From Eubacteriales bacterium (GTDB taxonomy: Bacteria; Bacillota; Clostridia; Peptostreptococcales; Anaerovoracaceae), in contig JAQUJQ010000001.1 of assembly GCA_028680875.1 (NCBI GenBank), positions 1-49,165 on the forward strand: a stretch of DNA of 49,165 nt, in the 5' to 3' direction. The notes under the pieces were generated by a model, which saw nothing but the letters and a program-made list of their open reading frames with translations, was not told where the DNA came from and did no database searches. The position numbers were made by a program, and so were the translations under genes. Of this stretch, positions 12,692 through 35,500 are shown in pieces (position 1 is the stretch's first letter; the number at the start of each line of letters is the position of its first letter).

Positions 12692-13353
12692 GGTGTCTGC
12701 GATATATCAAAGATACAAATTTTAAAGCAAATCACAACACTCCCCTAAACCTATCGGAAATCTTCTTCGGTGTCTGCGATATATCAAAGATACAAATTTT
12801 AAAGCAAATCACAACCCATCATCTGAGAGCGTATATCGTAATAGTGGTGTCTGTGATATATCAAAGATACAAATTTTAAAGCAAATCACAACATAGGCGT
12901 AAACCTTATGCGAATAACTTGCGGTGTCTGCGATATATCAAAGATACAAATTTTAAAGCAAATCACAACTTGAACCTCGGTGAGCTTATCAAAGAACAGG
13001 GTGTCTGCGATATATCAAAGATACAAATTTTAAAGCAAATCACAACTGAGCCATGAGAGAGCTGTCAGATAGACACGGTGTCTGCGATATATCAAAGATA
13101 CAAATTTTAAAGCAAATCACAACACCCCCCTAAACCTATCGGAAATCTTCTTGGTGTCTGCGATATATCAAAGATACAAATTTTAAAGCAAATCACAACC
13201 TTATTGCGATTCTCTCTTTCTTAATGGGGGGTGTCTGCAATATATCAAAGATACAAATTTTAAAGCAAATCACAACATCGGTTTTTTCACTTTGATTTGC
13301 CGGTTCGGTGTCTGCGATATATCAAAGATACAAATTTGAAAGCTATTCACAAT
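12692..13353 (-). CRISPR. CRISPR array part A: 9 repeats and 8 spacers
   Basis: The 47-nt repeat on the plus strand is GGTGTCTGCGATATATCAAAGATACAAATTTTAAAGCAAATCACAAC. Repeats start at 12692, 12769, 12846, 12923, 13000, 13077, 13153, 13230 and 13307. Spacers are 29-30 nt. Repeats 3 and 8 each carry a 1-nt variant. Repeat 9 (13307-13353) is a hybrid: nt 1-31 are perfect and there are 4 changes in nt 32-47. Strand '-' is the crRNA sense inferred from tracrRNA complementarity. Confidence 0.95.
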
Positions 13354-13386
13354 AAATACTGATAGTCAATTAGTTACATTGCATTA

Positions 13387-13543
13387 AGAAACGGTTTAGA
13401 ACCACTTTGTACAAAAGAGGTTTTATTTTTGCAGTTGTAGCGTGTTTCTTTGCTATTCTTTTCCGTTGATTTCAATTTCAAGAAACAAAAAACCGTTTCT
13501 CAAACGTTTCTCGTCAGAAGATTTCCGTTTCTCAACCGTTTCT
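13387..13543. promoter_or_regulatory. cluster of putative integrase/Xis arm-type sites (left arm)
   Basis: AGAAACGGTTTAGAACC is at 13387-13403. AAACCGTTTCTCAAACGTTTCTC is at 13491-13512. CCGTTTCTCAACCGTTTCT is at 13525-13543. The last two are reverse complements of the dyad seen at the right end. Confidence 0.5.
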
Positions 13544-13560
13544 TGTGACAGCAAAAGTAC

Positions 13561-13588
13561 AAAAAATCCCGCACTTTCGGGCGGGATT
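13561..13588 (-). terminator. intrinsic terminator after the lysis cassette
   Basis: The minus strand reads AATCCCGCCCGAAAGTGCGGGATT followed by T6. The site lies 26 nt downstream of the spanin-like gene. Confidence 0.6.
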
Positions 13589-13613
13589 CAGTTGGTTGTA
13601 AATAGGATCGAGA

Positions 13614-13994
13614 TTATTTCAGCTTCCATACAAAATAAATGCAGACTAACAGCAGAGCAAAGAGAGCAATGCGACCGCACCAAATTTGGAAACTCTGCCA
13701 GCTTGTAAGCGGTACTTTTTCCTGTTTGACCACTTCCACCGGATAAGGAACTCGGATTGTGTCGTTGATAAAAACTGAGTCTTTGACAATGCGGTTTTTG
13801 TACAGGTATCTGAATTTTTCCAGAATCAAGGTATCGCCTTTATCCTTCACAAATACAGAATCGTAACGGAAAATTGAGTCTTTGACGAAATTATCCCGGT
13901 ACTCGATTTTTGTAGTTGCTACCGGAATGTATTTGACAGATTTGCAGGAATACAACAGAGTTGCTATTACTGCGAAAATAAGTATCTTTTTCAT
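13614..13994 (-). CDS. unimolecular-spanin-like lipoprotein
   Basis: 126 aa. It has an N-terminal lipobox (MKKILIFAVIATLLYSC) and a C-terminal TM helix (IALFALLLVCIYFVW). The gene overlaps the endolysin-like gene by 4 nt. This is the architecture of T1 gp11-type u-spanins. Confidence 0.45.
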   Translation of the reverse strand: MKKILIFAVIATLLYSCKSVKYIPVATTKIEYRDNFVKDSIFRYDSVFVKDKGDTLILEKFRYLYKNRIVKDSVFINDTIRVPYPVEVVKQEKVPLTSWQSFQIWCGRIALFALLLVCIYFVWKLK

Positions 13995-14401
13995 TGGATT
14001 TTGATTTTAGTTTGTAGTTTAAAACCTGCCTGTACTGCCGAAATATCGGCGTTTTGTCCGTTCTCAACAAAACTCATTGCTGCAACGATTAGAATATATT
14101 CAGAGCCATCCCGGGCGGTTAGTTTCTTGTTTCGGGGAACCCCCGACCATCTTTCAACATGGGCGATATAGCTTTCTGTATCGTTCTCGATTGACGGTGC
14201 CCAGTGGGCAATGATCTTTTCAATGGTGTTTATTCCCTGGGATAGGTACGTCCCAAGGATTACAAAGCCGGCACGATAGCCGTAAGGCATTGAAGAGAAA
14301 GTTTTGAAACTCTTGTCCCGGCCTTTAATTTCTCCCTGGAACTGTTCGGTATTTTTCCGGATATTCAACGGATTGTTGTTCCTAAGTCCTCTCGATTTCA
14401 T
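13991..14401 (-). CDS. putative endolysin (family often auto-annotated 'structural protein P5')
   Basis: 136 aa. It carries the motif RGLRNNNPLNIR...GYRAGFVILGTYL...IIAHWAPSIENDT. The gene sits between the holin and the spanin. Muralytic function is inferred from this position. Confidence 0.5.
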   Translation of the reverse strand: MKSRGLRNNNPLNIRKNTEQFQGEIKGRDKSFKTFSSMPYGYRAGFVILGTYLSQGINTIEKIIAHWAPSIENDTESYIAHVERWSGVPRNKKLTARDGSEYILIVAAMSFVENGQNADISAVQAGFKLQTKIKIQ

Positions 14402-14403
14402 AT

Positions 14404-14841
14404 TTATTCCTCCTGCTTTTTTGAGTTTAGAAATGAAATGAGGGTTTGAATTTCCTCTTTGTTTTCAAAGAGTTTGAGCAGGACCTTTTGAATTTCATCC
14501 ACGTTTTTGGTTTCCTGCCTCAGGTTCTCAAAAACGGACTTCGCTTCAACCAAGACAATCCCGATAGCTCCTATTACGGTGAAGTACGGCATATCGAAAA
14601 CCACGCTTGCCACAATATCAGCAATGGAAAGCATGATCATTAAACCGAAATAACTTGTCAGTTTGGTAATAGTGCGGCGATAGCCGAAACTGGTACGGAC
14701 GATTTTCAGGCGTTTTGCGCGCCTTACTCCGAAGAATAGGTCAATCAGCACGGACAGAAAAACACAAGTGTAGAGGACAGCCAAAACCGTGAGCAGGGCA
14801 TTCAGATTGCCCCAGTCTTTATTTATTATTAATCGTATCAT
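14404..14841 (-). CDS. phage holin-family membrane protein
   Basis: The start was moved to the ATG at 14841 because the track's start at 14883 is a TTG lying inside a terminator hairpin. About 145 aa with 3-4 predicted TM helices. It lies immediately upstream of the endolysin-like gene. Confidence 0.6.
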   Translation of the reverse strand: MIRLIINKDWGNLNALLTVLAVLYTCVFLSVLIDLFFGVRRAKRLKIVRTSFGYRRTITKLTSYFGLMIMLSIADIVASVVFDMPYFTVIGAIGIVLVEAKSVFENLRQETKNVDEIQKVLLKLFENKEEIQTLISFLNSKKQEE

Positions 14842-14881
14842 ATTTGTTTGAATTTTAATGTGTTGTTGATTTGGATTATTC

Positions 14882-14911
14882 AAAAAAATCCCGCTCTTTC
14901 GGGCGGGATTT
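14882..14911 (-). terminator. intrinsic terminator after the DUF6266-like gene
   Basis: The minus strand reads AAATCCCGCCCGAAAGAGCGGGATT followed by T7. The hairpin is nearly identical to the one at 13561-13588. Confidence 0.55.
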
Positions 14912-14941
14912 GAGCAAGAAAACGAATATTATTGCCTACGC

Positions 14942-15580
14942 TTAGGCAACTGTTACAGAACCCAGATAAACACTATTTGCAACCTCTTTAGCATCTGCGG
15001 AAATAAATCCCAAATACACTTGGACTTCTTCTCCCATCCAGTCGGCAGGCACAGAAACCGTTTGAGTTACGGTGGAGCGGGCTTCCCCTGCGGATACGGT
15101 TACCGCTTCGCCTTTGTCGGCATTCAGCACGGCAATCAGAGCTTTATCGGTTGCTTTGGCAGTACTTATGCCGGTGTTGTCGTCCCAGGTAACCGTAACG
15201 CTTCCACCTGCGGCGGTTGCTGCTCCATTGGTTGCCGAAGTTAACGAACCACGGGAAATGAGGGCAGAACCGAAGTTCAACTGATAATCGGGATAATCGC
15301 CCGAAATGGCATTTGCCAGCGTGTAAGACATTGCGGCATTGAAAGCCGTCTGTTTGTTGGCGTAAAGTTTGAAACCTGTACGCACAACGTCAGTCAACGG
15401 TTTGAGAAAGTCCAACGCAAGCGCAAATTTGCTTCGTTGGCTCAACTGTCCGTCCGTGCGCGGATTCTTTACACTTTGGGCTTGGCTACGCATATACGAA
15501 ATGCCTTTCCAACTCCCACCTATGACCGTTCCGACCTTGCCGGAAAAGCCACCTAAGATACCTTGTTTAATTGTTCCCAT
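14942..15580 (-). CDS. DUF6266-like protein (function unknown)
   Basis: 212 aa. The N-terminus MGTIKQGILGGFSGKVGTVIGGSWKGISYMRS...DGQLSQRSKFA matches my memory of the Bacteroidota DUF6266 family. GC content is higher than in neighbouring genes, by eye. Confidence 0.45.
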   Translation of the reverse strand: MGTIKQGILGGFSGKVGTVIGGSWKGISYMRSQAQSVKNPRTDGQLSQRSKFALALDFLKPLTDVVRTGFKLYANKQTAFNAAMSYTLANAISGDYPDYQLNFGSALISRGSLTSATNGAATAAGGSVTVTWDDNTGISTAKATDKALIAVLNADKGEAVTVSAGEARSTVTQTVSVPADWMGEEVQVYLGFISADAKEVANSVYLGSVTVA

Positions 15581-16972
15581 TTTACAACTTTTTTAAAGGG
15601 TTATTGATTCGATATTAACTTGGACTTGGTAATAAGCAAATACGGCTCAAACCTTATCCGAATGCAAATGTAATTAGAGGTAATTATCTGAATATCATAT
15701 TGGTTTCTTATGCTTTAGCTTGCTTTAACCTGCCGTTTCCCTCGCAAAAAAACACGAAAAGGAAAAAGAAAATGTAAACGCCATATTACTGCAAGAAAAA
15801 GCGAAGAGAAACGGAGCGTTGAGGCTGTCAAGGTTTTTCGGCGAAATACAACCCGAAGCGTAGCGGAGGTGTGGAGATTTTGGCGAAAACCCGCAGGGCT
15901 TGACCTTTACAGACTTATTTTCTTGCTGTTATCTTTGTGAACATTTTTTTTGTCGCTCTTTGATTACAGTGAAATCCTGCGTGGAACGCAAATGAAATAA
16001 TTTTATCAACTGCATTTCTTCAGGGGTGGGTGGTCGGGGGCTGTGTGTGGGCGAAGCAGGATTTAAACCGAAAACAGGTAAAGCAGCCTTGAGCCGGAAC
16101 GGAGCGGTGAAAAACAGGCGGAGCGATAGCGAAGTAGTTTTTTGCCAGCGTAGTGGAGAGGCGCGAGCCGTCTGCGAGTGGAGCGAGGGTGGCAGACGAG
16201 GGTAGCCCGGAACGCAGTGAGGGCTTCGACTGCCTACGGCTTTGCCGCAGGGCTGGCGGAGTTTTTGTTTGGAGCGTGCGTTGGAAAAGGCAAGGGCTGG
16301 ACGAAATGAGGAAGTAAAGTGTAACGGAACGGACGAATGGAGGACAGCTCTTGTGTGGGGTGGCTGTGCGGTGTGAATGACGGAATGGAGAGCAACGGAA
16401 TGACAAAATGAACACGGCAAAAGCCACATTGAAAGCGACTACAAAAACTGTGACAGCCCGATTAGCCCGAGCGACCCGCAGGCGAGCAAAACAATAAGTG
16501 GCGACTGCCCCCAATTATAAATCAAACTAATCCTTATTGGGGTTTTGGGGGCAGGTGCAGCCACGAATGAGGATTGAACGAGCGTGTGTAGCAAAACAAG
16601 CTGACACGCCACGAGGAGCACCTACCGGAGCGCAGGAGTGAGTGTGGAAGTATTAGCTGTCAAGGGCAGACGGAAAAACACTACCCGAAGTGAAACGGAG
16701 GTGTGGAGGTTTTTTCAGGCTGCTTGTTTTACCCTTGCAGCTATGTTTTTGCGAACAAAGTGAGTGATTGACGAATACCTTTTTACCTGTTCGATTTAAA
16801 ATCCTGCGTGGGCAGGTTAGACAAATAATTTATACCGCTTAAATTGAAAATTCCCCAAATCCCCAAAATGGGGATATGGGGAATTCTGGGGAAATTAATC
16901 TTAGCAGATCGTATATTTGCCTACTATTTTCTAATTGACCAATAATTGACCATATTGACTAATAAATGACTA
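15581..16972 (+). other. 1.39-kb ORF-poor, GC- and purine-rich (plus strand) region; candidate structured RNA(s) or replication origin
   Basis: Only low-complexity antisense ORFs are present. Two related ~185-nt units lie at 15824-16010 and 16656-16845. Promoter-like TATCTTTG and TATGTTTT boxes occur on the plus strand. A long-range pairing joins AAATCCTGC (15972-15980) with GCAGGATTT (16056-16064). Confidence 0.3.
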
Positions 16973-18295
16973 CTAATTGACTAATTCAAAATAGCTACCA
17001 GCCCCATATCCTTTATTAATCAGCAACTTAAACTCATTTACCAAATTGTGCAATTCATTGGTTGCCATCTGTCGGGATATTTCATTTATTTTCTGGTATT
17101 CGGCATTCGTAATCCTTCCGTTTTCTTTCACATACAGTACGGCTTTAATCTGTCTATCGTTCAGACCTAACTTGCTTAAATCCTCCTTGTTGTATTTGTC
17201 TCTGCGGAAAATAGTCCAAAAATCGTTGCCACTGCAAGAGATTTGAGGAGTGGGAATTTTTGCTTCCTGACATAAAATCCTCATTTTGTCCATTCCACGC
17301 CCCCAAGATTCGACATAACCACTACGGAAAAATGCAGTTGCAATATCAGGATTGTGAGGTTGAGAGGAATGTTTGTTCAGCAAATCTTCAACTGTCCAGT
17401 TTTCAGGCAGTTTCCCGTAATTCCAAATCATAATCTTATCGGGGTAAACGCTAATTTGAATCGGATAAGGACCTGTATAATCTTTGTGCGAAACCGCATT
17501 AAGCAGGGCTTCACGTAAAGCGTCTTCGGGGTATTCGTAAGTTTCAATACGGTTGAGCCCCTGATAAGTGATTAATGCCTTGCCGTATTTCGTTAGCAAA
17601 AGATCCATTGTTTTTTCGACTTGCTCAAACAAGTTGCCGTTGATCACGTCATGGAATAACAAGTCACTGTTGGTACGAAAAAAGCCGATTTTGATATATG
17701 CTCCTGACACAAATTTTTCAGGATCGGGGTGAAAAAGCAAGATTGCAGCACGTTTCAAATAACCGTTATCTGTGAGTTTCAGATTATTCAGTAAAACTTC
17801 ATTTGTATCTGTCAGCACACCGCTATCAAGCCTTTTACTCTTAATACCTTTATTGCGAAAAAAGTCGAATGTTTCGGATTTTAAATCGGCAACTGACACA
17901 TTGGGAATTGATACACCATCCCAGTGTTTGCCCTGCTTTTGGAGCAAAAATTTGTCTAATGCCATGCCTTTTAATTCTTGCTTGGTAGAACCGCTACGGA
18001 AATGGTACTCGCCCTTGTAGTTTACCGGATTAGGGTGTGACTCAACTATAATCTCGATATAATCGCCTTGTTCAGACTGGTACAGATTGACCGGGGCAAC
18101 GATTCCCAGAATGGTGGTTATCTTGTTGGGCAGGTCTTCCAATAATTTCTTAGCATTCTTTACTCCTACCACATTGCCGTTGTCGTCTTTACCAATGTAG
18201 AGTGTACCACCCTGAGCATTGGCAAAGCCACATATCCATTTCAGGTATTCGTCTTTCCAAACGGATTTGTATTCTATGTTTTGAGTTTCGGGCAT
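16973..18295 (-). CDS. AlbA_2 (Schlafen-like) DNA-binding + ATPase-like + wHTH protein ('RecG-like' regulator family)
   Basis: 440 aa. The N-terminus ETQNIEYKSVWKDEYLKWICGFANAQGGTLYIGKDDNGNVVGV is typical of the AlbA_2/divergent AAA-4 domain. The C-terminus has a wHTH (...RITNAEYQKINEISRQMATNEL...). Confidence 0.7.
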   Translation of the reverse strand: MPETQNIEYKSVWKDEYLKWICGFANAQGGTLYIGKDDNGNVVGVKNAKKLLEDLPNKITTILGIVAPVNLYQSEQGDYIEIIVESHPNPVNYKGEYHFRSGSTKQELKGMALDKFLLQKQGKHWDGVSIPNVSVADLKSETFDFFRNKGIKSKRLDSGVLTDTNEVLLNNLKLTDNGYLKRAAILLFHPDPEKFVSGAYIKIGFFRTNSDLLFHDVINGNLFEQVEKTMDLLLTKYGKALITYQGLNRIETYEYPEDALREALLNAVSHKDYTGPYPIQISVYPDKIMIWNYGKLPENWTVEDLLNKHSSQPHNPDIATAFFRSGYVESWGRGMDKMRILCQEAKIPTPQISCSGNDFWTIFRRDKYNKEDLSKLGLNDRQIKAVLYVKENGRITNAEYQKINEISRQMATNELHNLVNEFKLLINKGYGAGSYFELVN

Positions 18296-18303
18296 TGTGT
18301 TAT

Positions 18304-19014
18304 CTATTTTATTTGAGTTGATATGATTTTCCTAAAATTGGAAGCAATCTTCTTTTCTACTTCTATTTCTGACACATTCCATATATTAGAGAGATAAGTA
18401 TGTACAATTTTTATATTACTATTCTCAATATAGGGAGAATCTGTTTCGGTCAAAATCAAATCCTTTGGAATTTTGGATATAATCTTCTTTCCATTTTCAG
18501 ATTGTGTCATTGCAGAATTGATAGAAAAATAATATCCAGACTTTACAATCGACTCTAAAACAGATATTAATCCTGAATACCAATGAAATATTGCATTTTC
18601 AATTTTGTTGTCCAATAACATTTGTAATGTTTCTTTTTCTGCTCGCCTTGAATGTAAACTAACAATTTTGTTTTGACCTTTTATACAATTAAGGACATAT
18701 TCAAAACTTTTAATTTGGATATCTTTGGTGGAAATTCCCTCTCTTGAAAAATCTAAACCAACTTCTCCAATATATGAGGTATTATTCACATACTCTTTAA
18801 ATCTTAAGTACTCATTTGAATGTTCTTTAGCTAATAAAGGGTGAAGCCCCAAAGCTAATCGAATATATTTATACTGTCTCACATGGGAAAAGCCCATGGA
18901 GAAATGACTTGGCAAATTAGTCATTCCAATAGTAATGATTTTTTGTTGCTCATTGTTTGCGATATATTTTTCCGGATTCTGAACCATGTCGAAATGACAA
19001 TGCACATCAATCAT
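18304..19014 (-). CDS. qatD: QatD, TatD-family DNase
   Basis: 236 aa. It has the TatD metal motif MIDVHCHFD, ...LGLHP... and ...FHWYSG.... The gene overlaps qatC by 4 nt. Confidence 0.85.
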   Translation of the reverse strand: MIDVHCHFDMVQNPEKYIANNEQQKIITIGMTNLPSHFSMGFSHVRQYKYIRLALGLHPLLAKEHSNEYLRFKEYVNNTSYIGEVGLDFSREGISTKDIQIKSFEYVLNCIKGQNKIVSLHSRRAEKETLQMLLDNKIENAIFHWYSGLISVLESIVKSGYYFSINSAMTQSENGKKIISKIPKDLILTETDSPYIENSNIKIVHTYLSNIWNVSEIEVEKKIASNFRKIISTQIK

Positions 19015-20378
19015 AATAAACCTGCTTTTTTCTTTATAATATCATCTCCATACATATATACATATTTCTTCAACTCAGCTCTTGTTCTTACAACGACCTC
19101 AACATAATCATCTATTTTTGTCAGATCAGTTATACCTGCTACAAGAAGTTCTTCTTTTATTTCCTCCTTATTCAAATCTCTATTTAAAAAGTTAAAACAA
19201 GCACTTATATCTTGCCCTTGCTTAGTGAGCAAAAAAGGAGTAAACTTTTTTCTACCTGATAATTTTTTGTTAATTGAATTTCCATATGTTGTTGCATCAT
19301 CAATTGACAACAAAGCAGCACGTCTATATGTACAAGGCATACAGATACCACAGTGACTGGCAGTTTTGTTTTCCCAATTAACCCTATGTCCTCTTTTTCC
19401 ACATGAATTTGAGATTTGCACAATTTCTTTTAAGAAATCTATATTCTCACAATTTACAACCATCTCACCTTTAGTAAACAGTTCATAAGGATTTGATATA
19501 TCTGTCATAATCCCCAATTTATTCCATAATTTGCGCAAAATGGATATAAAGGTTGGGTGTGTTGTGCGTGTACTGCAAGCACTTCGCCGAGAAGAGCTTA
19601 AAGGGTAATTCAATGAGACTGATCCATTTTCAGGTACAATTAATGGCGTTGATTTAGTTTGAGCAACAAGAAGTGCAATTCCAATAAAAAGTATTGAGCG
19701 ACTTCTGAAAGTACTTTCTTTCTCTTCCGTCGATTCTAACAAGGTTACATCTATTGAGTCTATATGCACAAATTGACCTTTATACTTCATTTCCAATTTT
19801 TCCAAAAGCTTTATTTGCTCTGTTCGTGCGCTCAATTCTGGGTCATAATGAGAAGTAAGCAATAATTTTTCATCAGGTTTAGCCTCAAGAAAATTTATAG
19901 CCCCTATCAATGAATCAAGTCCCCCAGAGAATAAATTTACCTGAGAAAAGGAATCTTCCAATTCCTTCGGCAATTTTTGTTGTGGATATTCAAACTTTGT
20001 TTTATAAAAGCACACATGCCAATAATCACCTGTCAAGAATGAAAATAGTGCTTCCAATTCACCTTCTACTCCAAGCCATTTATCTACATCTGTTACAGGT
20101 AATTCTACCGTCAATTCTCTTGACCATCCATCAACGGAATAAGATTTGCGTTCTACAAATCTGTCAATACCATATGCACATGCTGAAATTATAAAAAAAT
20201 CAACAACCTCCGAAGAAACTTTGCTTGCAAATGGTATCAATGGCTGAAAACCAATTTTTATAATCGCCGTTGTTTCATTTTCCGACTTTAACTTGATAGT
20301 TACACTCTTAGTAGAACTATCATAAATAGGTGTTTCAACTTTAATTTTCATCGCAAATGATATTAATGATTGATTCAA
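19011..20378 (-). CDS. qatC: QatC, QueC-like PP-loop ATPase
   Basis: 455 aa. It has the PP-loop motif FSGGLDSL and a C-terminal Cys cluster (CGKRG...HCGICMPC), as in QueC-like proteins. Confidence 0.85.
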   Translation of the reverse strand: MNQSLISFAMKIKVETPIYDSSTKSVTIKLKSENETTAIIKIGFQPLIPFASKVSSEVVDFFIISACAYGIDRFVERKSYSVDGWSRELTVELPVTDVDKWLGVEGELEALFSFLTGDYWHVCFYKTKFEYPQQKLPKELEDSFSQVNLFSGGLDSLIGAINFLEAKPDEKLLLTSHYDPELSARTEQIKLLEKLEMKYKGQFVHIDSIDVTLLESTEEKESTFRSRSILFIGIALLVAQTKSTPLIVPENGSVSLNYPLSSSRRSACSTRTTHPTFISILRKLWNKLGIMTDISNPYELFTKGEMVVNCENIDFLKEIVQISNSCGKRGHRVNWENKTASHCGICMPCTYRRAALLSIDDATTYGNSINKKLSGRKKFTPFLLTKQGQDISACFNFLNRDLNKEEIKEELLVAGITDLTKIDDYVEVVVRTRAELKKYVYMYGDDIIKKKAGLL

Positions 20379-21162
20379 AAATTGACTCTATTGTGTTTTT
20401 ACCTTCTTGCCCTCTCCAGTTAATCTTTACGACAGGCTTATCTTGATTTAATAATTTGATTCTGCCCAGTATATCATCTTTTATTGTTCTAAAAGTTTCT
20501 CTACTTACAGATTCACCCCTTTGTTGTGTAATTTTTTCTTGAAATCTTTGAGACAAGTGTTCAAAGATATAATTACCCCAAAATAGGCAAAGTAAATCAG
20601 ACAGCCCATTTCCATCGGCGTAGGTCTTTAATAGTTGCTCAAATTTTTCATAGTCATTCCCCACTTCATTTTCGATTTCTTTAAAAACTTCAGAAGAAGC
20701 TTTGTTTGCAGCAGTCTCATCTAAGCCTGTTGTTATGTCAGAGCAATATACAATAAGGAAATCAATAATACTTCCTACCGTCTTTCCTTCGAGACTTCCA
20801 AAGCCTATTTTTTCTAATGTCTGTTGCAAGCCATCTGAACTGACACCAGAAAAGAAGTTTACTATCTTTCCAGTGGTTTTTAATCCAGCTTTACCTATTG
20901 AGGAAGACTTTCCTTTACTCACATTAGAAGAACCACCTCCTGTTTTTATCAAGTTTCTGAAAGCTGATTTTATATGATTGTGTCTTCTTTCCAGCAGTTT
21001 TTTGTATTCTTTAGCCGCAACTTCAGGTTGTTTTTGTTCTTCACTCTGCTCTAATTCAGATTCTTTCTCTACAGTTTTTGCTATATTCGTAATAGAACTA
21101 TTTAGTTCTTTCCAATTGGGTTGATTTTTAACCCCAGGAGAAATTCGTTGAGTTGTACCCAT
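20341..21162 (-). CDS. qatB: QatB (uncharacterised Qat component)
   Basis: 273 aa with no motif I recognise. It occupies the position between the KAP NTPase and the QueC-like gene, as in QatABCD. The call is by synteny. Confidence 0.6.
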   Translation of the reverse strand: MGTTQRISPGVKNQPNWKELNSSITNIAKTVEKESELEQSEEQKQPEVAAKEYKKLLERRHNHIKSAFRNLIKTGGGSSNVSKGKSSSIGKAGLKTTGKIVNFFSGVSSDGLQQTLEKIGFGSLEGKTVGSIIDFLIVYCSDITTGLDETAANKASSEVFKEIENEVGNDYEKFEQLLKTYADGNGLSDLLCLFWGNYIFEHLSQRFQEKITQQRGESVSRETFRTIKDDILGRIKLLNQDKPVVKINWRGQEGKNTIESIFESIINIICDEN

Positions 21163-21164
21163 CT

Positions 21165-26479: not shown

Positions 26480-26483
26480 ATCG

Positions 26484-26768
26484 TTACTCTTTTAATTTTT
26501 GTTTTGCGTTGTCCAAAACTTTATCTGATATTTCTTTGTCCTTTTCCAACACTTCTATCACTTTGTCTGCCAACCAAAGAATAAGCAGTTCTTCGGGATC
26601 GGCTTGTAAAATTTCTGCTATCATAGGAATTTGCTCTCTTTTAGCTCGACGGTCGCCTTTTTCAATTTTACAATACATGGCATTATCCATATCAAGGGCG
26701 GCTGATATATGACGTTGCAACATTTGCTTGCTTTCTCGTAATTCTTTAATTTTATTTGCGAACAGCAT
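26484..26768 (-). CDS. XRE-family HTH protein
   Basis: The start was moved to the ATG at 26768 (MLFANKIKELRESKQMLQRHISAALDMDNAMYCKIEKGDR...). The gene ends 4 nt before the SIR2 start codon. Confidence 0.7.
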   Translation of the reverse strand: MLFANKIKELRESKQMLQRHISAALDMDNAMYCKIEKGDRRAKREQIPMIAEILQADPEELLILWLADKVIEVLEKDKEISDKVLDNAKQKLKE

Positions 26769-26866
26769 TCTTGTGTGTTTTATACTTGACAATATCAGAC
26801 AAATATACGACATCTTTTGGAATTGATAAAGAAAAGAAAGAAATTATAAACAACAAACAATGGAAG

Positions 26867-28693: not shown

Positions 28694-28695
28694 AT

Positions 28696-29676
28696 TTATT
28701 TCAAATAAACAGGGTTGATAAATGCCTGTGGATCGTGTGGCAAAAAGCAGGCGCGGGATATGTCCCGCCCTGATTTATCGACTTCAACACCGTAGGTTTG
28801 TAGAATGTAGTTTGCAACCGCAGCAAAATAGTTGCTGTGTGTTGTTCGTTTGGTATCAATTGGGATTATCCATTTAAGCCCATCGCCGGAAGGACTAACG
28901 AAAAGCATTTGCGTGTCAAAGTATTCATCCTGCAAAAGTTGCTTGCGAAGCAGATCAACGTTTTGCAAATGGTCAAAATCAATACACAATAATCCAGAAT
29001 GGCTTATGAGTGCTTTATCGTTCCTGGTTTGAAACATTCCTGAAAAAGTACAGTAATCGAAAGTTGAGGCTTTGAATTGCCGGGCTTGCTTAGGGTCTTT
29101 TATGCTTCTCAGTTTTTCAGTTCGTTGTTTTGCATAATCGCCGACAATGTAATTGTAGGCGTCAAGCAAGGAAATGGACTTGTGAGGAATGGTATTCCGA
29201 ACGGGAGCTTTGAAGAATGAAAAATGCCTCACCACAATGTCTGAACTGTGATTTGTTTGATTGTTGTGATTATTCTGATTTTGAATTTCAGTATTCGAAA
29301 TTCGGTTTTTGTAAAAATTGAATTTCTCACCAATATGCAGGTTCATTTCTTTATTTAGCGTTTGCAGCAACTCAGTTCCTGACTGTTTGTAATGAAGTTC
29401 AGCAAAGTCGAACGCATCACCGGCAGGAATAGCGTTTTCGCTATCCAAATGCCGAGCGAGTTCTTTATCCCAAGCATTGCCCAATATATTCTCTTTCTCA
29501 ATGAAGATATTCAATGTCGGCTTGTCGGCATTTAATGGGTTTTTTGCAGGTGAACAAGTCCTTCCCGAAAGGGAGAGGACTGTTTGACCCGGATAATACA
29601 ATTCCAAAATATGGGCATAGATTCCAATACCATAGTGCGTTTTGGATAATATCGCCTGTTTATTTATCTCTCCCAT
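28696..29676 (-). CDS. BT4734-like / VirE-N-type primase-related protein
   Basis: 326 aa. The C-terminal segments ...LLCIDFDHL...FVSPSGDGLKWIIP...RACFLPHD resemble the AEP-type primase-like domain found upstream of DUF3987 genes. Confidence 0.5.
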   Translation of the reverse strand: MGEINKQAILSKTHYGIGIYAHILELYYPGQTVLSLSGRTCSPAKNPLNADKPTLNIFIEKENILGNAWDKELARHLDSENAIPAGDAFDFAELHYKQSGTELLQTLNKEMNLHIGEKFNFYKNRISNTEIQNQNNHNNQTNHSSDIVVRHFSFFKAPVRNTIPHKSISLLDAYNYIVGDYAKQRTEKLRSIKDPKQARQFKASTFDYCTFSGMFQTRNDKALISHSGLLCIDFDHLQNVDLLRKQLLQDEYFDTQMLFVSPSGDGLKWIIPIDTKRTTHSNYFAAVANYILQTYGVEVDKSGRDISRACFLPHDPQAFINPVYLK

Positions 29677-30004
29677 AATTCCGAATTTTACGCATTGTAT
29701 AGTTGTCGGATAGGATTTTTATAATGTCCTGACGGCGATAGAATAGTTTATTGCCAAGACGTGAAAATGGCAATGTGCCGTTTGAGCGCAAAGTTTGCAA
29801 TGTACGTGGGCTGATATGCAGAATTTGCATCACATCCTGATTGTCGAGCCAATCAGAAAGGGGAGTATCCCCAACCCCTTCCAAGGGAGAGCTACTTTTG
29901 AGCATTCGCATACAAGGCAGTTGAGATAATGCCTTTTCAAATCCATTTTGTGGATTTTCCGCCATTTCTCGCAAAAACAGGACGCTATGTTTTGACTTTT
30001 TCAT
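29660..30004 (-). CDS. excisionase/MerR-like HTH DNA-binding protein
   Basis: 114 aa. The segment ...DVMQILHISPRTLQTLRSNGTLPFSRLGNKLFYRRQDI... is typical of HTH_17/Xis-like proteins. Confidence 0.6.
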   Translation of the reverse strand: MKKSKHSVLFLREMAENPQNGFEKALSQLPCMRMLKSSSPLEGVGDTPLSDWLDNQDVMQILHISPRTLQTLRSNGTLPFSRLGNKLFYRRQDIIKILSDNYTMRKIRNYGRDK

Positions 30005-30306
30005 CGCTTTGCCCTCCTTCCTTTACCGCTAATGTAGTCGGCTGCTTTTTGCTCCACATCAACAACGGAAGCGGAGCGATTGCGGGTTAACCATAAATTC
30101 AGTTCAGAGCGGCGGAAATAGAGTTTCTTCCCTTGCGGGCAATAGCACGGAATTGTATTACTACTTGTTAGCTTATACAAATGACTGCTGCTTAAATCGA
30201 GATACAAGCAGGCTTCAGCAAAAGTGAAGATTTCTTTTTGGAGAAGGTTCTGTTCCATCAATCGGCGTTCGATTGATGTGAGTTTGTTCAAAATATTCTC
30301 TTGCAT
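30001..30306 (-). CDS. excisionase/MerR-like HTH DNA-binding protein
   Basis: 101 aa. It carries ...FAEACLYLDLSSSHLYKLTSSNTIPCYCPQGKKLYFRRSELNLWL... and overlaps the next HTH gene by 4 nt. Confidence 0.6.
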   Translation of the reverse strand: MQENILNKLTSIERRLMEQNLLQKEIFTFAEACLYLDLSSSHLYKLTSSNTIPCYCPQGKKLYFRRSELNLWLTRNRSASVVDVEQKAADYISGKGRRAKR

Positions 30307-30448
30307 AGTTTTAAAAATTCGCCTTGATTTTATGCTTCTCGATTGTGGCGACTTTCAAAAGAAAAGCCGCAACTCCCATTGTGGGGATTGCAGCTACAAA
30401 AGAATAGTCAAAACAACAGTGTAACGGGTTACTGTAACCGGTTATAAA

Positions 30449-30838: not shown

Positions 30839-31078
30839 ACTGCTTCTTTCAAAGATTAATACTGATTAATGCATTGACAGGGCAAAGTTCAACAGAATGG
30901 AGCAAAAAAATAAGGGGAATAGGTGTACTATTCCCCGATAAATAAATTGCAACAAATTATAATTCAGAGATATTTACATTGCATTTTTTGATTCTCCTGT
31001 TACAGAAGTAATATTGAAATTCACACAATATCTATTTATCTAATTAATAATCGACGTATTAATTAAAATGCTTCAGAT

Positions 31079-31708
31079 TTATCTATAACCTCTATTTTTA
31101 CTCTCAATTTTTATTGCGACAATCAGTTCGTTTAAAAATTCTGTAAGTTTAGTTGTCTTTCGTTTGAATACATCATCTCGTTTTTTATAAATATCAGCAA
31201 ACTGAAAATTCAAACCTTTCTCAAATACTCGCGTCAAGTCGGAAAAGTTAACAGCATGGCCTGCTCTGTTTCTTACAGAATGTGAATAAAATAATCCGCA
31301 TATTATTTCCATTATATCAATAAAATCAACATCCTCTGCCAAATAAACATTTGAGACAAATTCATTTTCTTGATTTTTAAAAAAAATATCAGGATTTTCC
31401 AACCGAAATCTTACAATTCGATATGTTGACTCCAAAATATCCAGAATTTTCATAAAAAAGATGTGTAAATCGGTTGTTCTACTATCAGATTTTATTTCTA
31501 GTTGCATATTGAGGCTCTTTAATTCTGTCACTGTATAGTTTATGGTAAAATATAAGAGAATTATATCCTGTTCTTCATGACAGAAATCGAGTAATTGATA
31601 AACAAAATCATCATAAGCATTCGATAATTCAGTGTAGTAAACGCTTTCGCGCTCTTTAACAGAACAAGAAAGCAGGTCAAATAACTTTGTATTCAGGAAC
31701 CGTTTCAT
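31079..31708 (-). CDS. RteC-like regulatory protein
   Basis: 209 aa. The C-terminal pattern ...FYSHSVRNRAGHAVNFSDLTRVFEKGLNFQFADIYKKRDDVFKRKTTKLTEFLNEL resembles the RteC winged-helix end, from memory of CTnDOT-type RteC. Confidence 0.45.
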   Translation of the reverse strand: MKRFLNTKLFDLLSCSVKERESVYYTELSNAYDDFVYQLLDFCHEEQDIILLYFTINYTVTELKSLNMQLEIKSDSRTTDLHIFFMKILDILESTYRIVRFRLENPDIFFKNQENEFVSNVYLAEDVDFIDIMEIICGLFYSHSVRNRAGHAVNFSDLTRVFEKGLNFQFADIYKKRDDVFKRKTTKLTEFLNELIVAIKIESKNRGYR

Positions 31709-31714
31709 ACATTA

Positions 31715-33325
31715 CTAAATTGAATCGTTCCTAATTTCTAACGATATATTTTTTGTTATTCCAATTTCACTGATAAAATGTTTGTCATGGGAAATAACAA
31801 GAACTGTTCCTTGATAATTTTTAATAGTACTAATGAGAATGGAAAGACTTGATATATCAAGATTGTTAGTTGGCTCGTCAAGAACAAACATATCAGGAAT
31901 ATGGTTGGAAATCATTAGACAACATAAGTAAAGCCTCATTCGTTCTCCTCCGCTTAGCGTTTGGCAATTTTTACCCCATGCTTCTTTTGGAAATAAGGCT
32001 CTGTTTAATCTTAATCGGATTTCATGTTCTTGCAGATTATTGGAATTATACTCATGTGCTAATTCAAGAACCGTAACGTTTTTATCTACTTGGACATATT
32101 GTTGGTCAAGATATATGTATGAAAAATCTGCTTTTCTAATTTCTCCTTTTAATGGGTTTAGTTCACCAATAAGCAATCTTATCAGAGTTGTTTTTCCTAC
32201 TCCGTTATCGCCTATGATGTGAATCCGTTCTCCGCTTCGTACTTCAATATTCAGTGGAGTTTTCCAAATCAGTTTTGTATCAATATATCCGAAATTTGCA
32301 TTTACGACTTCAACCAATAATTTTCCATTATGTAATTGTGCATTGTCAAAATCAATTTTAATTTTGTTGTTTATTTGCTGTCTCTGTCGTAAATCGGCGA
32401 GTCTTTGTTGACTGTCGCTTATGGCAGAAGCTTGTTTTTCCTTTAGTTTTGCCGAACTATTCTCGGCCAAAGCACCACGAGCATGCAGTAATATTCGAGG
32501 TTCACCGCCTTTCTGCTTATTTCGTTCTCCCTGTGATGACCGCTTTTCCTGGCTTTCTCGAATATCCTGTGCTTTTTTACGAGCTGTACGAAGAACTATT
32601 TGTTCCGCATCGATTTGCTGTTCCAAAGCTCTATCTTCAACTACTTTCTGTTCTCTGTAAAAAGAATAATTTCCACCATACGTTTTGATTCCCTTTTCTG
32701 ATAATTCGTATGTAGTGTCGAGTAGATTAAGGAGGGTAATGTCGTGGCTTACGACTATAATTGTGGCCTTGCAGGTAGAGATATAAGCGTATAGTTTTTC
32801 TCTACTTATTTGATCCAAATGATTGGTTGGTTCATCAAGCAGAATGATATCAGGTTTGTGGATCAACAACCCTGCGAGAAAAATTTTGCTTTTTTCTCCA
32901 CCACTTAACGAGTCTAAAGGAGATGTCAATTCAACATCCTTCAAACCCCAATAATCAAGTGCTGACTTGCAACGAGATTCAATATCCCAATCATCCTCCA
33001 ACAAATCATAATACGCATAATCATTACTGCCGTTATTAATGGCATGTAAAGCATTGATTTTTTCATCAACAACAAGAGCATCGGATATGCTTTGTCTTGT
33101 TATGCTGTTTTGTTGTGGAATATAATAAGGTTGAGAAGAGCATTGAATAGCTCCGAAAGAAGGTTTCAGTTTCCCTGCAAGCAATTTCAACAGGGTGGAT
33201 TTACCTGTCCCATTATTGCCAATAATGGACACCTTTCTGTTCGACGAAACAGAAAAACTAATATGTTCTAATAATGCTTGTTGATTGGAATAGTGATAGG
33301 AAATATCACTAATGATAATACTCAT
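31715..33325 (-). CDS. ABC-F family tandem-NBD ATPase (possible ribosome-protection/ARE type)
   Basis: The start was moved to MSIIISDISY at 33325. There are two Walker A motifs (GNNGTGKST, GDNGVGKTT), two signature motifs (LSGGEKS, LSGGERM) and no TM domain. A basic inter-NBD linker of about 80 aa is present. Confidence 0.85.
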   Translation of the reverse strand: MSIIISDISYHYSNQQALLEHISFSVSSNRKVSIIGNNGTGKSTLLKLLAGKLKPSFGAIQCSSQPYYIPQQNSITRQSISDALVVDEKINALHAINNGSNDYAYYDLLEDDWDIESRCKSALDYWGLKDVELTSPLDSLSGGEKSKIFLAGLLIHKPDIILLDEPTNHLDQISREKLYAYISTCKATIIVVSHDITLLNLLDTTYELSEKGIKTYGGNYSFYREQKVVEDRALEQQIDAEQIVLRTARKKAQDIRESQEKRSSQGERNKQKGGEPRILLHARGALAENSSAKLKEKQASAISDSQQRLADLRQRQQINNKIKIDFDNAQLHNGKLLVEVVNANFGYIDTKLIWKTPLNIEVRSGERIHIIGDNGVGKTTLIRLLIGELNPLKGEIRKADFSYIYLDQQYVQVDKNVTVLELAHEYNSNNLQEHEIRLRLNRALFPKEAWGKNCQTLSGGERMRLYLCCLMISNHIPDMFVLDEPTNNLDISSLSILISTIKNYQGTVLVISHDKHFISEIGITKNISLEIRNDSI

Positions 33326-33618
33326 TTTATTACAATTAATAGGGGTCTTAAACAAGACCAAATTAAACCGATAACTATTTACAAACTCACGGCGTCGGTT
33401 TAACCAAACCAACTATTAATTGTTAACTTTCATTGGAGTATTTTTAAATTCAAGTGCAAAGATAATGGTATTCATCAAAATAACAAAATATTTTCCCCAG
33501 TTTTCCTGAGAATGAGTTTGATAGTTGGAATATCTTTACTTTTGGAAATAAGCGATAATCTTGCATTTAATTGTATTGAATCGATGAAAAATCGCCTTTG
33601 GATTTGTGTAGATTGCCG

Positions 33619-33801
33619 AATTCAAGTAATAAATGCAACCCCTTTTTATATGCTAATTTTCAAGAATTTGCTTGTTGAAATTAGAATAACTTTAGTGTAA
33701 ATTATTGGATTAAAGTTATTTTCAATCCCAACAAGCCATCATTTTCATCATAACAAATTGTTTTATTGAACAATATTGGGGTTGCATTTATTACTTGAAT
33801 T
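33619..33801. repeat. 183-bp nested palindrome / long imperfect hairpin
   Basis: The outer 24-bp arms are at 33619-33642 and 33778-33801, with a perfect reverse complement. Inner arms are GCTTGTTG (33670-33677)/CAACAAGC (33729-33736) and AATAACTTTA (33685-33694)/TAAAGTTATT (33711-33720). Confidence 0.8.
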
Positions 33802-33847
33802 TAGGATTCTTAATCTTCATGCGTACTTAAATATGTTTATAAAGGGA

Positions 33848-34918
33848 TTATATTTTTATTTCTGGGAAACTGTCGATTGCTTCGCGTGCGCCTTTATCGG
33901 TAATGTTTGCGTAATGTTTAATGGTTGTTTGAACGGATTTATGCCCAAGTAATTTGCTGACCTTGTAAATATCAACGCCGCTTTCGAGGAGAATAACGCC
34001 AAACGAATGTCGGGCAATGTGGAAATGGAGTGTTTTTTTGAGCTCTAATTTGGTGGCTATATTTTTCAGTGCTTTATCACACGCCTGTTGCGTGGGAACG
34101 CTGAAAACCTTGTAATCATCTGCTTTGCGTTCGCCAAGCAAAGCGATTGCTTGGGGATTCATAGGCAAATAGGTTACGCCTGTTTGCTTGCCGTTTTTGG
34201 TCTGTGTTTTTTGCTGTGAGAATTTCAGTCGGAAGTCTTCTGTGATATTTCCCCAAGTGAGGTTTTTAATGTCGGAATAACGCATCCCACAAAAGCAGGA
34301 AAACAGGAATACGGTTTTCACTTTCGGGTTGAGGCTGCTTTGTGCTATCCGGGCAATTTCATCGGTTGTAAGGAAACTTACAATCGTTTCTTGTTTCTCG
34401 GGGGCTTCTATATCCAACAGGGTATCGGAAGCAACAATACTTTCGGTAATGGCTCTTTTGATAAACGAACGGAATTTGGAAAAATAGGCGTTAGCCGTAT
34501 TTCCGTGAAGATTGCTTGCTAGATAATCGGCAAAGCCCTGTACAAACTCCCGCTTTACCTCCTGCATTTGGAGCGATTTATTGGGCATATATTCTTTGAG
34601 GTGGTCAACAACCTGCATACTAACTTTGGTTGTTGCCTGGGCTTCGCAGTAGGCAAGAACTGACTGTTTACGCTTGTGTGCAGGTGTGATTCCGTTCGGA
34701 CTGGCGATAAGTTGGTTCTCCCGCTGGTTGCGGATTTGCTGGGCGAGTTTCAGAGATTCCTTGTTGGCTTCCCTCTCTTCCTTGGTGGGGCGATCGGATA
34801 GTACGGTATAGATTTTCAGGTATTCATAATGGCGTTTCCCATTCTGAAACCAGTCGAGATAATAACTTCCGTTTCCGTCGGCGAGCTTCTTAACTCGCAG
34901 TTTGACTGTTGTTTTCAT
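33848..34918 (-). CDS. int: tyrosine site-specific integrase
   Basis: The start was moved to the ATG at 34918 (MKTTVKLRVKKLADGNGSYYLDWFQNGKRHYEYLK, an Arm-DNA-binding-type N-terminus). Catalytic-region motifs are ...MRYSDI..., HIARHSFG and LLGHKSVQTTIKHYA. Confidence 0.9.
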   Translation of the reverse strand: MKTTVKLRVKKLADGNGSYYLDWFQNGKRHYEYLKIYTVLSDRPTKEEREANKESLKLAQQIRNQRENQLIASPNGITPAHKRKQSVLAYCEAQATTKVSMQVVDHLKEYMPNKSLQMQEVKREFVQGFADYLASNLHGNTANAYFSKFRSFIKRAITESIVASDTLLDIEAPEKQETIVSFLTTDEIARIAQSSLNPKVKTVFLFSCFCGMRYSDIKNLTWGNITEDFRLKFSQQKTQTKNGKQTGVTYLPMNPQAIALLGERKADDYKVFSVPTQQACDKALKNIATKLELKKTLHFHIARHSFGVILLESGVDIYKVSKLLGHKSVQTTIKHYANITDKGAREAIDSFPEIKI

Positions 34919-34920
34919 AT

Positions 34921-34971
34921 CCGTTTCTTTGAAACAAAGATACAAAAAAGAAACGGTTTGAGAAACGGTTT
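34921..34971. promoter_or_regulatory. putative arm-type sites (right arm)
   Basis: AGAAACGGTTTGAGAAACGGTTT is at 34949-34971, and an inverted half-site CCGTTTCTTT is at 34921-34930. Both lie directly upstream of the integrase start. Confidence 0.5.
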
Positions 34972-35092
34972 TATGCAAAAAAGAACAAATATGAGCAAAA
35001 AAGAAGAGTATTTCGGGAGGTAGTCAAATTTATAATTATCTAATATATAGATTATTATTAGTTTTTGCTTGTTCTTGTTTTCTGTGAAAATG

Positions 35093-35500
35093 TGGTATGT
35101 GATTCTTAAAGCAAATCACAACAGTAATATGGAATGGACAACAGAATAAAAAGGTGTCTGCGATATATCAAAGATACAAATTTTAAAGCAAATCACAACT
35201 GAACTTGTTTCTATCAGTGAAATCTATCTGGTGTCTGCGATATATCAAAGATACAAATTTTAAAGCAAATCACAACACCATAACGGCAGAGTAACTACGA
35301 ATCTTTGGTGTCTGCGATATATCAAAGATACAAATTTTAAAGCAAATCACAACTCCGCGGATGTTGCATTCATCTTTAGACAGGTGTCTGCGATATATCA
35401 AAGATACAAATTTTAAAGCAAATCACAACTGTAAGCGCGATATTACTTCTTCAATTGTCGGTGTCTGCGATATATCAAAGATACAAATTTTAAAGCAAAT
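35093..35500 (-). CRISPR. CRISPR array part B: hybrid partial repeat, 4 full repeats, 1 truncated repeat, 5 spacers
   Basis: The last 17 nt of the repeat lie at 35106-35122. They are preceded by GGTATGTGATTC, which is not repeat sequence. Full repeats start at 35153, 35230, 35307 and 35383. The final repeat (35460-35500) lacks its last 6 nt. Spacers are 29-30 nt. Confidence 0.9.

Follow-up and report, generated by a model that had tools for sequence, protein, structure and literature searches.

The phage PhiAP1.1 integrates in the type II-A repeats of the CRISPR (short palindromic repeats, clustered and regularly interspaced) arrays of Streptococcus pyogenes by way of an 8-bp core, a case that its authors call unique (Varble et al.; bioRxiv 10.1101/2020.10.09.333658, later Nat Microbiol 2021). 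We have analyzed a stretch of 49,165 nt (contig JAQUJQ010000001.1 of assembly GCA_028680875.1, positions 1 to 49,165; "the window" from here on) in which a type II-C array is interrupted at 13337–13343 / 35106–35112 by a 21.8-kb element bearing a tyrosine integrase. The segment from about 13337 to 35105 is very probably an integrative element that entered one II-C repeat by site-specific recombination, the repeat being the preferred bacterial attachment site (attB) of the whole family.

Like in PhiAP1.1, the attachment site of the element (attP) shares a short core with the repeat (8 bp in the phage, 7 bp here), and in both cases we are dealing with a mobile element able to enter any repeat of an array, which it splits in two. 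Excision across repeats can carry repeat-spacer units along, and one of our compared contigs, L139, may hold the counterpart here (L-numbers are the labels of these contigs). However, PhiAP1.1 belongs to Firmicutes and type II-A, whereas the present family belongs to Bacteroidales and type II-C. The former is a complete cos phage with an anti-CRISPR, while here we found defence systems and detected no structural genes, i.e., not the gene set of a complete temperate phage (structural genes plus anti-CRISPR), although anti-CRISPR genes were not screened for. The integrase here is of the Bacteroidetes arm-binding type (Arm-DNA-bind_5). II-A arrays have a single leader promoter and the insertion silences the downstream spacers, whereas here promoters inside the repeats would be expected to maintain the expression of both halves. 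Finally, the phage occupies mostly one degenerate terminal repeat of one species, in contrast to the long arrays and 21 repeat types found in this work.

A family that inserts preferentially in CRISPR repeats, and occasionally at non-CRISPR sites, is also known among the Tn7-like transposons of cyanobacteria (PMC11837452). However, these are minimal, cargo-less elements of another phylum and other CRISPR types, which move by TnsABC plus TnsD/TniQ transposition with target-site duplication and not by site-specific recombination. As for the recombination, a parallel is found in IntDOT of the Bacteroides element CTnDOT, also a tyrosine integrase with an arm-binding domain, with a conserved B site and a variable B' site, a pattern that our junctions fit (PMC2817482, PMC2034462). 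The overlap used by IntDOT has 7 bases and starts with a conserved GC; the cut is made between T and G, and mismatches are tolerated in the five bases that follow the GC (PMC2817482). Here too the GC of the overlap comes directly after the T-run of a conserved core site, and the single mismatch (repeat position 16) falls within the tolerant last five bases. In contrast to CTnDOT, no conjugation or mobilization genes were detected in the scan of the 21 element open reading frames (ORFs) of at least 90 aa, which sets it apart from the integrative conjugative or mobilizable elements of Bacteroides (CTnDOT, NBU), and the target is a CRISPR repeat instead of scattered sites. In CTnDOT these sites follow a GTANNTTTGC-type consensus.

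P4-like elements and phage-inducible chromosomal islands (PICIs) are phage satellites with an integrase, an excisionase-like regulator, a primase-helicase, no capsid genes and a variable slot with anti-phage systems. The same module set is found here, with a defence slot that differs between copies; however, the proteins are unrelated, and a CRISPR repeat takes the place of the tRNA or other gene as attachment site. One related fragment (L084) is listed in IMG/VR, which is weak evidence on packaging by a helper phage. A full-text literature search gave no report for Bacteroidota, for type II-C or for a defence-carrying integrative element targeting CRISPR repeats. Repeat targeting is an already known behavior; the element type, the integrase lineage, the host phylum, the CRISPR subtype, the breadth and the probable neutrality are new.

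One repeat split in two

The 47-nt repeat of the array, GGTGTCTGCGATATATCAAAGATACAAATTTTAAAGCAAATCACAAC, is present in eight intact copies in part A, next to cas2, followed by a ninth, hybrid copy (part A with this copy spans 12692–13353) in which the first 31 nt are perfect and positions 32, 38, 40, and 47 differ. Part B, on the other side of the element, begins with only the last 17 nt of a repeat (35106–35122), preceded by the non-repeat sequence GGTATGTGATTC. Exactly one 47-nt repeat, with nothing gained or lost, is obtained by adding up 30 nt of the left side (13307–13336), the overlap T(G/T)AAAGC of 7 nt and 10 nt of the right side (35113–35122). In window orientation the hybrid repeat corresponds to attL, formed by the repeat-derived B' (13307–13336), the overlap TGAAAGC (13337–13343) and the element-derived core site TATTCACAAT (13344–13353). 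The opposite junction, attR, is formed by the element core site (35094–35105), which contains the inverted core TGTGATTC at 35098–35105, the overlap TTAAAGC (35106–35112) and the repeat-derived B arm AAATCACAAC (35113–35122). The attP deduced from them is GGTATGTGATTC-T[G]AAAGC-TATTCACAAT. Thus one repeat can be recomposed from attL and attR, and a short core is common to this repeat and attP, as in elements that use a repeat as attB.

The position of the exchange could be delimited by the bases in which host repeat and element differ, namely repeat positions 1, 8, 10, 16, and from 18 on. In the reading direction GTTGTGATTTGCTTTAAAATTTGTATCTTTGATATATCGCAGACACC, the junction on the integrase side is GTTGTGATTT-GCTTTAA-GAATCACATACC and the far junction ATTGTGAATA-GCTTTCA-AATTTGTATC... 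The former is host-type through position 16 and element-type from 18, and the far junction is the opposite, indicating that the exchange took place between positions 10 and 18, within GCTTT(C/A)A, which occupies positions 11–17 of the repeat read as GTTGTG.... Inverted core sites, TGTGAWTT and its complement, flank the 7-bp overlap GCTTTCA. At the far end, the core site of the element, ATTGTGAATA, mimics the 10 nt with which the repeat starts (far-end core and repeat are alike in 13/17 nt), and therefore a full-length hybrid repeat remains after insertion. The integrase-side junction can fold as an 8-bp hairpin (z = −3.5, −7.3 kcal/mol) in which the repeat handle would pair with the element core. 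The architecture of attR was the same in the 39 distinct junctions that could be parsed.

A perfect inverted repeat around a short overlap is the classic core of a tyrosine recombinase site. In L133 the two element ends are joined directly, with the arm sites followed by ATTGTGAATT-GCTTTCA-AATTCACACC and then the integrase, and the core TGTGAATT-GCTTTCA-AATTCACA is a perfect 8-bp inverted repeat around 7 bp. This and the base switch at both junctions provide the inverted core-type sites around a 6–8 bp overlap that are typical of heterobivalent integrases.

The comparison with L002 is equally informative. This contig has the same cas1-cas2, with an identical Cas2, and the same right flank (M28 peptidase/Fic, 99.2% identity over 9.2 kb), but between them a single uninterrupted array of 14 repeats, with the trailer spacer and the truncated last repeat found in the window. 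The window holds one split array, not two. The terminal repeat (35460–35500 in the window, 3269–3309 in L002) lacks its final 6 nt (CACAAC, plus strand); since the sequence downstream is the same in both, the missing 6 nt mark an old, fixed end of the trailer and do not come from a second insertion. Spacer 3 of the window is common to L004 and L006, contigs that also have the identical Cas2, indicating that the cas2-proximal side is the growing, variable end and the far side the old one.

Integrase and arm-type sites

The integrase gene starts 187 bp inside the right junction. Its Phage_integrase catalytic domain was recognized by Pfam at 2e-21, the motifs GMRYSD, HIARHSF, LLGH, and HYANI are visible in the translation, corresponding to the R...HxxR...H/W...Y signature, and these motifs align with IntI4 and XerC-like structures. 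Among known phage and plasmid records the best identity to this protein was 36% (amino acid), indicating that its clade is absent from described phages or plasmids.

Allowing up to one mismatch, we found six copies of the motif GAGAAACGGTT in the 49 kb, where 0.99 would be expected (0/100 shuffles reached six). All copies are at 13386–13544 or 34948–34970, within 250 bp of the element ends and in both orientations. The layout of the P-arm sites is conserved in L084, L133, and L139, and the two P'-arm copies upstream of the integrase are invariant among the aligned relatives. An N-terminal arm-binding domain and predicted arm-type sites on both arms are what would be expected of a heterobivalent integrase. 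In some elements of both sub-clades, although not in the window, an insert of about 65 nt (TTCCGATTAAGCGAGTGAAAATCAAACT...GGAATTTATG) is found between the arm sites and the integrase start codon (L020 at 9930–9995, L022, L119, and L133; diverged in L023). Rfam gave no match for it; its role may be that of a leader involved in regulation, or it may be a small mobile insert.

Much of this anatomy had been claimed already in a preliminary description of the window made from its letters alone. Our reading of the raw sequence bore out the hybrid repeat of 31 perfect nt plus four substitutions, the opening of part B with 17 repeat nt after non-repeat sequence and the rebuilding of one repeat (30 + 7 + 10 nt). 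The integrase had been placed at about 190 bp from the junction, close to the measured value, and arm-type sites in both orientations near both junctions had been proposed, which agrees with the motif being restricted to the ends. The overlap given there, T(T/G)AAAGC, is the reverse complement of the independently mapped GCTTT(C/A)A, and the deduced attP coincides with the joined ends of L133 and with the far-end junctions of L084 and L113, which have the same P arm.

Recurrent insertion in type II-C arrays

We searched the integrase against one genome per species and JGI metagenomes, and added exact-protein look-ups. The resulting set contained integrases at least 73% identical, with about 39 distinct junctions with enough upstream sequence. 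In 29 of these the 17-nt repeat start was preceded by a spacer of about 30 nt and one or more further II-C repeats. The arrays always stopped about 185 nt before the integrase start, in one constant orientation relative to the repeat. The 28 loci with at least two full repeats contained 21 distinct repeat sequences, in which positions 1–17 are 94% identical pairwise vs. 75% for positions 18–46, and nearly invariant except for A or T at position 8. Insertions were found from the first repeat of the old end to a depth of about 55 repeats, the number of repeats on the integrase side going from 1 to about 55 (the latter in L126). Therefore, we are dealing with recurrent independent insertions across arrays and positions (29 junctions, 21 repeat types).

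Some of the contigs are particularly clear. L102 (Ga0183095_10735) contains essentially the window element (92–97% nucleotide identity over ca. 10 kb) in another repeat type. L145 (JAKZKV010000005.1) is an insertion in a cultured isolate, Parabacteroides sp. FAFU027. The P arm ATTGTGAATAGCTTTCA is joined to a different repeat at the far-end junctions of L084 and L113; in L084 two more repeats, the leader, cas2 and cas1 come after the junction, and in L113 (Ga0302272_1002146, 3755–4498) the far end of one element is followed by seven repeats and then by the integrase of a second one, i.e., two elements in one array. In L139 (QMCD01004640.1, 6451–6547) an element far end is followed by a hybrid repeat, a single spacer of 31 nt, part of a repeat and an integrase, in that order, with A instead of G at the start of the two copies of the core; either two elements occupy neighboring repeats or one element has captured a repeat-spacer unit. 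We also scanned IMG/VR: the P-arm 16-mer gave 68 matches, 67 by chance and one true junction (L084), the arm-region 19-mer gave L084 only and the P'-arm pattern had no match. An outgroup integrase clade (L146–L150, 41% identity) was inserted at the 3' end of different LRR_5 genes, ca. 200 nt upstream of the integrase, with the same primase and HTH_17 backbone and a different arm motif (GTTTCTCGTTTTGTTTCTCG). As a separate observation, the outermost degenerate repeat of L013 (CAXXNE010000001.1, 9635–9690) and L015 (8170–8225) has a small hairpin insertion (CCCGATAA..TCGGG) that replaces the A/T-rich middle.

Evidence against and alternative explanations

Several results weigh against the interpretation of a repeat-targeting integrative element. 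Nine or ten junctions were not demonstrably in arrays. Five of them (L018, L021, L022, L120, and L132) have a perfect or near-perfect 17-nt repeat start beside non-repeat DNA and may be insertions in the outermost, trailer-most repeat, and those of L016, L111/L135, L116, and L119 are clearly other, secondary sites with partial core matches. The conservation of positions 1–17 is biased upward, as the pattern used to collect arrays matched those positions. In L024 the sequence of the partial junction repeat (9796–9812) is GTTGTGATTT, in contrast to GTTGTGAATT in each of its nine neighbors; a simple exchange model does not account for this T instead of A at position 8, a single-base difference in the B arm that may reflect a variant of the repeat. 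The attP-type junction of L133 would be compatible with either an excised circle or tandem copies. The far ends of the relatives were not within the 10 kb of flank examined, and both junctions of one insertion were seen only in the window. Finally, the contiguous spacer 8-repeat-spacer 9 join was not found by spacer comparison among the contigs with identical Cas2, which share spacers 3 and 13 of the window but not this pair, because the remaining spacers differ between strains.

The interpretation given in the preliminary description was supported. The repeat as preferred attB agrees with the 29/~39 junctions in II-C arrays, and some relatives (L016, L111, L116, and L119) occupy non-CRISPR secondary sites. 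Of the empty site that it had suggested to look for, the uninterrupted L002 array between the same flanks was found but the exact spacer join was not. The precedent it named from S. pyogenes is real (bioRxiv 10.1101/2020.10.09.333658), and its statement that no described case was known for Bacteroidota or II-C agrees with the literature searched. The CRISPR repeat is the preferred site of the family, not the sole one.

The first alternative to consider accepts the same insertion mechanism and takes the disabling or editing of host immunity as the selected function, as was proposed for PhiAP1.1 (bioRxiv 10.1101/2020.10.09.333658). Besides this precedent, the integrase-side spacer keeps a 17-nt handle that can be folded onto the element core (the hairpin mentioned above), and spacers could be lost or displaced by successive rounds of integration and excision across repeats, as the repeat-spacer unit between the ends in L139 might illustrate. 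However, both array sides stay long (ca. 55 repeats in L126, 8 and 5 spacers in the window), cas9, cas1, and cas2 are intact, and a TAnnTTTG promoter-like motif is retained after insertion in 18 of the 21 repeat types. No match was found between the 212 unique spacers of the surveyed arrays and all the collected element sequences, i.e., no sign of a conflict to escape, and no anti-CRISPR gene turned up in the general family scans, in which small ORFs were not screened. Intact cas genes, long arrays and the lack of element-targeting spacers point to a harmless landing pad rather than to immune sabotage, and we consider the latter unlikely.

Much less probable is an entry by RecA-type homologous recombination, without the integrase, through a repeat-like stretch or a mini-array carried by the element. 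The resemblance of the far-end core to the repeat and the whole repeat-spacer unit between element ends in L139 would fit such a process, but the identity at the junctions is only 5–7 nt, far too short for it, the exchange falls in the same 7 bp at all junctions over 21 repeat types, and secondary sites (L016, L111, L116) have the core alone in common. Arm sites, inverted cores and fixed orientation are, in contrast, the anatomy of a tyrosine recombinase site. That two independent arrays surround a fixed chromosomal island, with an integrase but no mobility, has nothing in its favor beyond the bare arrangement of the window. It is contradicted by the continuous array of L002 between the same flanks, by the exact complementarity of the partial repeats and by the near-identical element of L102 in a different array type, and was rejected, its probability being close to nil. 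The same minimal probability corresponds to an insertion by the Cas1-Cas2 adaptation machinery, in the manner of an over-long spacer or a casposon. The location inside an array, beside intact cas1 and cas2, might suggest it, but there is no repeat duplication, the break is at repeat positions 11–17 and not at the repeat border, insertions are found at many array positions far from the leader and the element has its own integrase and attachment sites; the junction structure led us to reject it. An assembly artefact was also rejected, as the same hybrid junctions were recovered from over 30 independent assemblies, one of them the genome of an isolate.

Gene content of the element and its host locus

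The coordinates of all features are listed in Table 1. All 21 element ORFs of at least 90 aa are on the minus strand, and three of them had no family assignment. No capsid, terminase, portal or tail families were found (Pfam for the 21 ORFs, PHROGs for 10 of these), and Pfam detected no relaxase/mobilization or type IV secretion genes among the 21. The order after the integrase is the double-ABC ATPase, two ORFs without assignment and the two HTH_17 proteins; the double-ABC ATPase segment is carried by L102 as well. Integrase, HTH_17 genes, primase and the lysis-like end module form a backbone common across the family, whereas the region after the primase varies and is filled with defence genes. 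The window has SIR2-HerA plus QatABCD there, L024 has pAgo plus PDC-S49, L108 has DndC plus PbeC/DndD-like genes, L114 has the methyltransferase of a type I restriction-modification system and L015 has MzaE/AbiU-like genes. A defence-hotspot satellite is characterized by an integrase and a replication module, by the lack of structural genes and by a defence cargo that varies at a fixed position, which is what we observed here.

Table 1. Features of the split CRISPR-Cas locus and of the inserted element (window coordinates).
Feature	Coordinates	Strand	Evidence
Candidate tracrRNA (trans-activating CRISPR RNA) anti-repeat AGAACAAATTTTAAGCAAATCACAAT, just upstream of cas9	5990–6015	−	Complementarity scan
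cas9, 1457 aa	6106–10479	+	Pfam RuvC_III, HNH_4, Cas9_a
Bro-N domain ORF, 276 aa, between cas9 and cas1	10484–11314	+	Pfam Bro-N
cas1	11323–12252	+	Pfam Cas_Cas1
cas2	12254–12586	+	Pfam CRISPR_Cas2
Array part A, 8 intact repeats and 8 spacers, cas2-proximal variable side	12692–13306	.	Raw sequence
Hybrid repeat, attL (window orientation)	13307–13353	.	Raw sequence
Far (P) arm sites, four GAGAAACGGTT matches and a weaker copy at 13523–13533	13386–13544	.	Motif scan
Intrinsic-terminator-like hairpin after the last element gene	13564–13589	−	Hairpin prediction
Conserved end module: 126-aa ORF, endolysin-like 136-aa ORF, holin-like 159-aa ORF, DUF6266 protein	13614–15580	−	Pfam, PHROGs
G-rich stretch, apparently non-coding	15600–16950	.	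Two overlapping ORFs without family match
Schlafen/AlbA_2 + HATPase_c_4 protein, cargo	16973–18295	−	Pfam
QatABCD defence system	18304–23054	−	PADLOC
QatD	18304–19014	−	PADLOC 1.3e-57
QatC	19011–20378	−	PADLOC 9.5e-88
QatB	20341–21162	−	PADLOC 2e-5
QatA	21165–23054	−	PADLOC 1.5e-105
SIR2-HerA defence system	23187–26479	−	PADLOC
HerA	23187–25208	−	PADLOC 2e-256
SIR2	25205–26479	−	PADLOC 2e-136
Backbone segment, including an HTH_3 regulator	26484–30306	−	Pfam, PHROGs; conserved in relatives
DUF3987/PriCT_2 primase-helicase	26867–28693	−	Pfam, PHROGs
BT4734-like_N protein	28696–29676	−	Pfam, PHROGs
Two HTH_17 excisionase-like ORFs	29660–30306	−	Pfam, PHROGs
Double-ABC ATPase (31715–33412) and 209-aa ORF without assigned function	31079–33412	−	Pfam
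Tyrosine integrase, 356 aa, N-terminal arm-binding domain	33848–34918	−	Pfam Arm-DNA-bind_5, Phage_int_SAM_5, Phage_integrase
Integrase-side (P') arm sites, flanking the integrase promoter region	34921–34970	.	Motif scan
attR (window orientation)	35094–35122	.	Raw sequence; junction table
Array part B, 5 spacers and 5 repeats, last repeat truncated; old trailer end	35123–35500	.	Raw sequence; L002 comparison

The end module has homologs in L084, L113, L133, and L139; the look-up of its 126-aa protein returned only the source contig, for which the Cas2 comparison gave JAQVXY010000005.1 of assembly GCA_028708885.1. The conservation of the adjacent G-rich stretch (1.3 kb) amounts to 75–78% in L113 and L133. 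A direct repeat of 58 nt lies within it, with its copies (15824–15881 and 16656–16713) 832 nt apart. Rfam gave chance-level matches only for this stretch, which could correspond to an RNA gene or to a site for replication or packaging. The Schlafen-like gene has just downstream a 17-nt near-perfect palindrome (16849–16885) and five tandem copies of TAATTGACTAA (16932–16985).

The host locus has the gene content of type II-C, i.e., cas9, cas1, and cas2 without csn2 or cas4 (Pfam). The candidate anti-repeat pairs ungapped with the repeat at 21/26 positions, and a one-base gap lengthens the match; the whole window had no Rfam match at the gathering score. The Bro-N ORF, the only extra one between cas9 and cas1, is an unusual additional gene for a II-C operon, and is part of the host locus and not of the element, because it is present in all the contigs with identical Cas2 (L001–L007) that span that position. 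Spacers 1 (12739–12768) and 6 (13124–13152) are nearly identical (ACTCCCCTAAACCTATCGGAAATCTTCTTC vs. ACCCCCCTAAACCTATCGGAAATCTTCTT), and there seem to have been two acquisitions from one target or from variants of it.

Proposed mechanism and effect on the array

According to the model of site-specific integration, attP would recombine with one repeat of the host II-C array, with recognition mainly through the first 17 nt of the repeat, which vary little among the sampled host arrays, thus allowing entry into many species and any repeat of an array. Cleavage would be expected after T10 of the top strand and after A17. The single mismatch in the overlap (A in the host, C in the element, position 16) would be tolerated, as it is by IntDOT of CTnDOT, and the overlap heteroduplex would then be sorted between the two junctions by replication. 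A host-type integrase side with an element-type far side is the pattern that one daughter chromosome inherits after heteroduplex resolution. The HTH_17 proteins may direct excision, and the primase-helicase may replicate the excised circle, whose junction in the case of the window element would read ...CAGTATTTATTGTGAATAGCTTTCAGAATCACATACC..., while the far ends of the relatives would read ATTGTGAAT(A/T)-GCTTTCA, followed by what remains of that repeat and of its array. The presence of holin- and lysin-like genes and the fact that no capsid, terminase, relaxase or conjugation genes were detected suggest a satellite-like lifestyle.

Promoters located within each repeat drive the transcription of II-C arrays in Neisseria and Campylobacter, and TAnnTTTG is the consensus of Bacteroidetes promoters. 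Read by eye, this motif is found at positions 24–31 in 18 of the 21 host repeats, within the part that is kept in the hybrid repeat. The spacer beside the far junction should still be expressed with a normal handle; only the one beside the integrase-side junction has a shortened, 17-nt handle. The insertion would thus cost at most one spacer, that beside the integrase-side junction, and the array may be a safe multi-copy landing pad for a carrier of defence genes, not a target to silence.

We tentatively put forward a wider scenario, which is possible although we would not call it probable. In it, a widespread family of satellite-like Bacteroidales defence carriers would have an attP shaped to copy the first 17 nt of II-C repeats, the segment that would pair with the candidate tracrRNA anti-repeat. 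Every repeat across genera would become a dock, with room for several elements per array, and the repeat promoters would limit the cost to one spacer at most, so that the host would retain adaptive immunity and add innate systems at that locus. Excision between different repeats would allow elements to take up repeat-spacer units and thus move acquired immunity from strain to strain.

Significance

The repeat-targeting elements known before were one Streptococcus phage and one group of cargo-less cyanobacterial transposons. The present family is an independently evolved and much broader case, in a different phylum, CRISPR subtype and element type, with dozens of insertions over 21 repeat variants. 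CRISPR repeats may be a general class of attachment sites, chosen like tRNA genes for being conserved, multi-copy and tolerant to insertion. In practice, the parts of a split array in genomes and metagenome-assembled genomes of Bacteroidales should be annotated as one locus and not as several, and inserts of 10–25 kb have to be taken into account in array-based strain typing. For Bacteroidales with II-C systems, the integrase and its target of 17 nt could be developed into an integration tool, and the cultured carrier Parabacteroides sp. FAFU027 makes these questions testable. The family physically joins adaptive (CRISPR) and innate immunity (SIR2-HerA, Qat, pAgo, Dnd-like, and restriction-modification systems) at one locus, a linkage that bears on the formation of defence islands.

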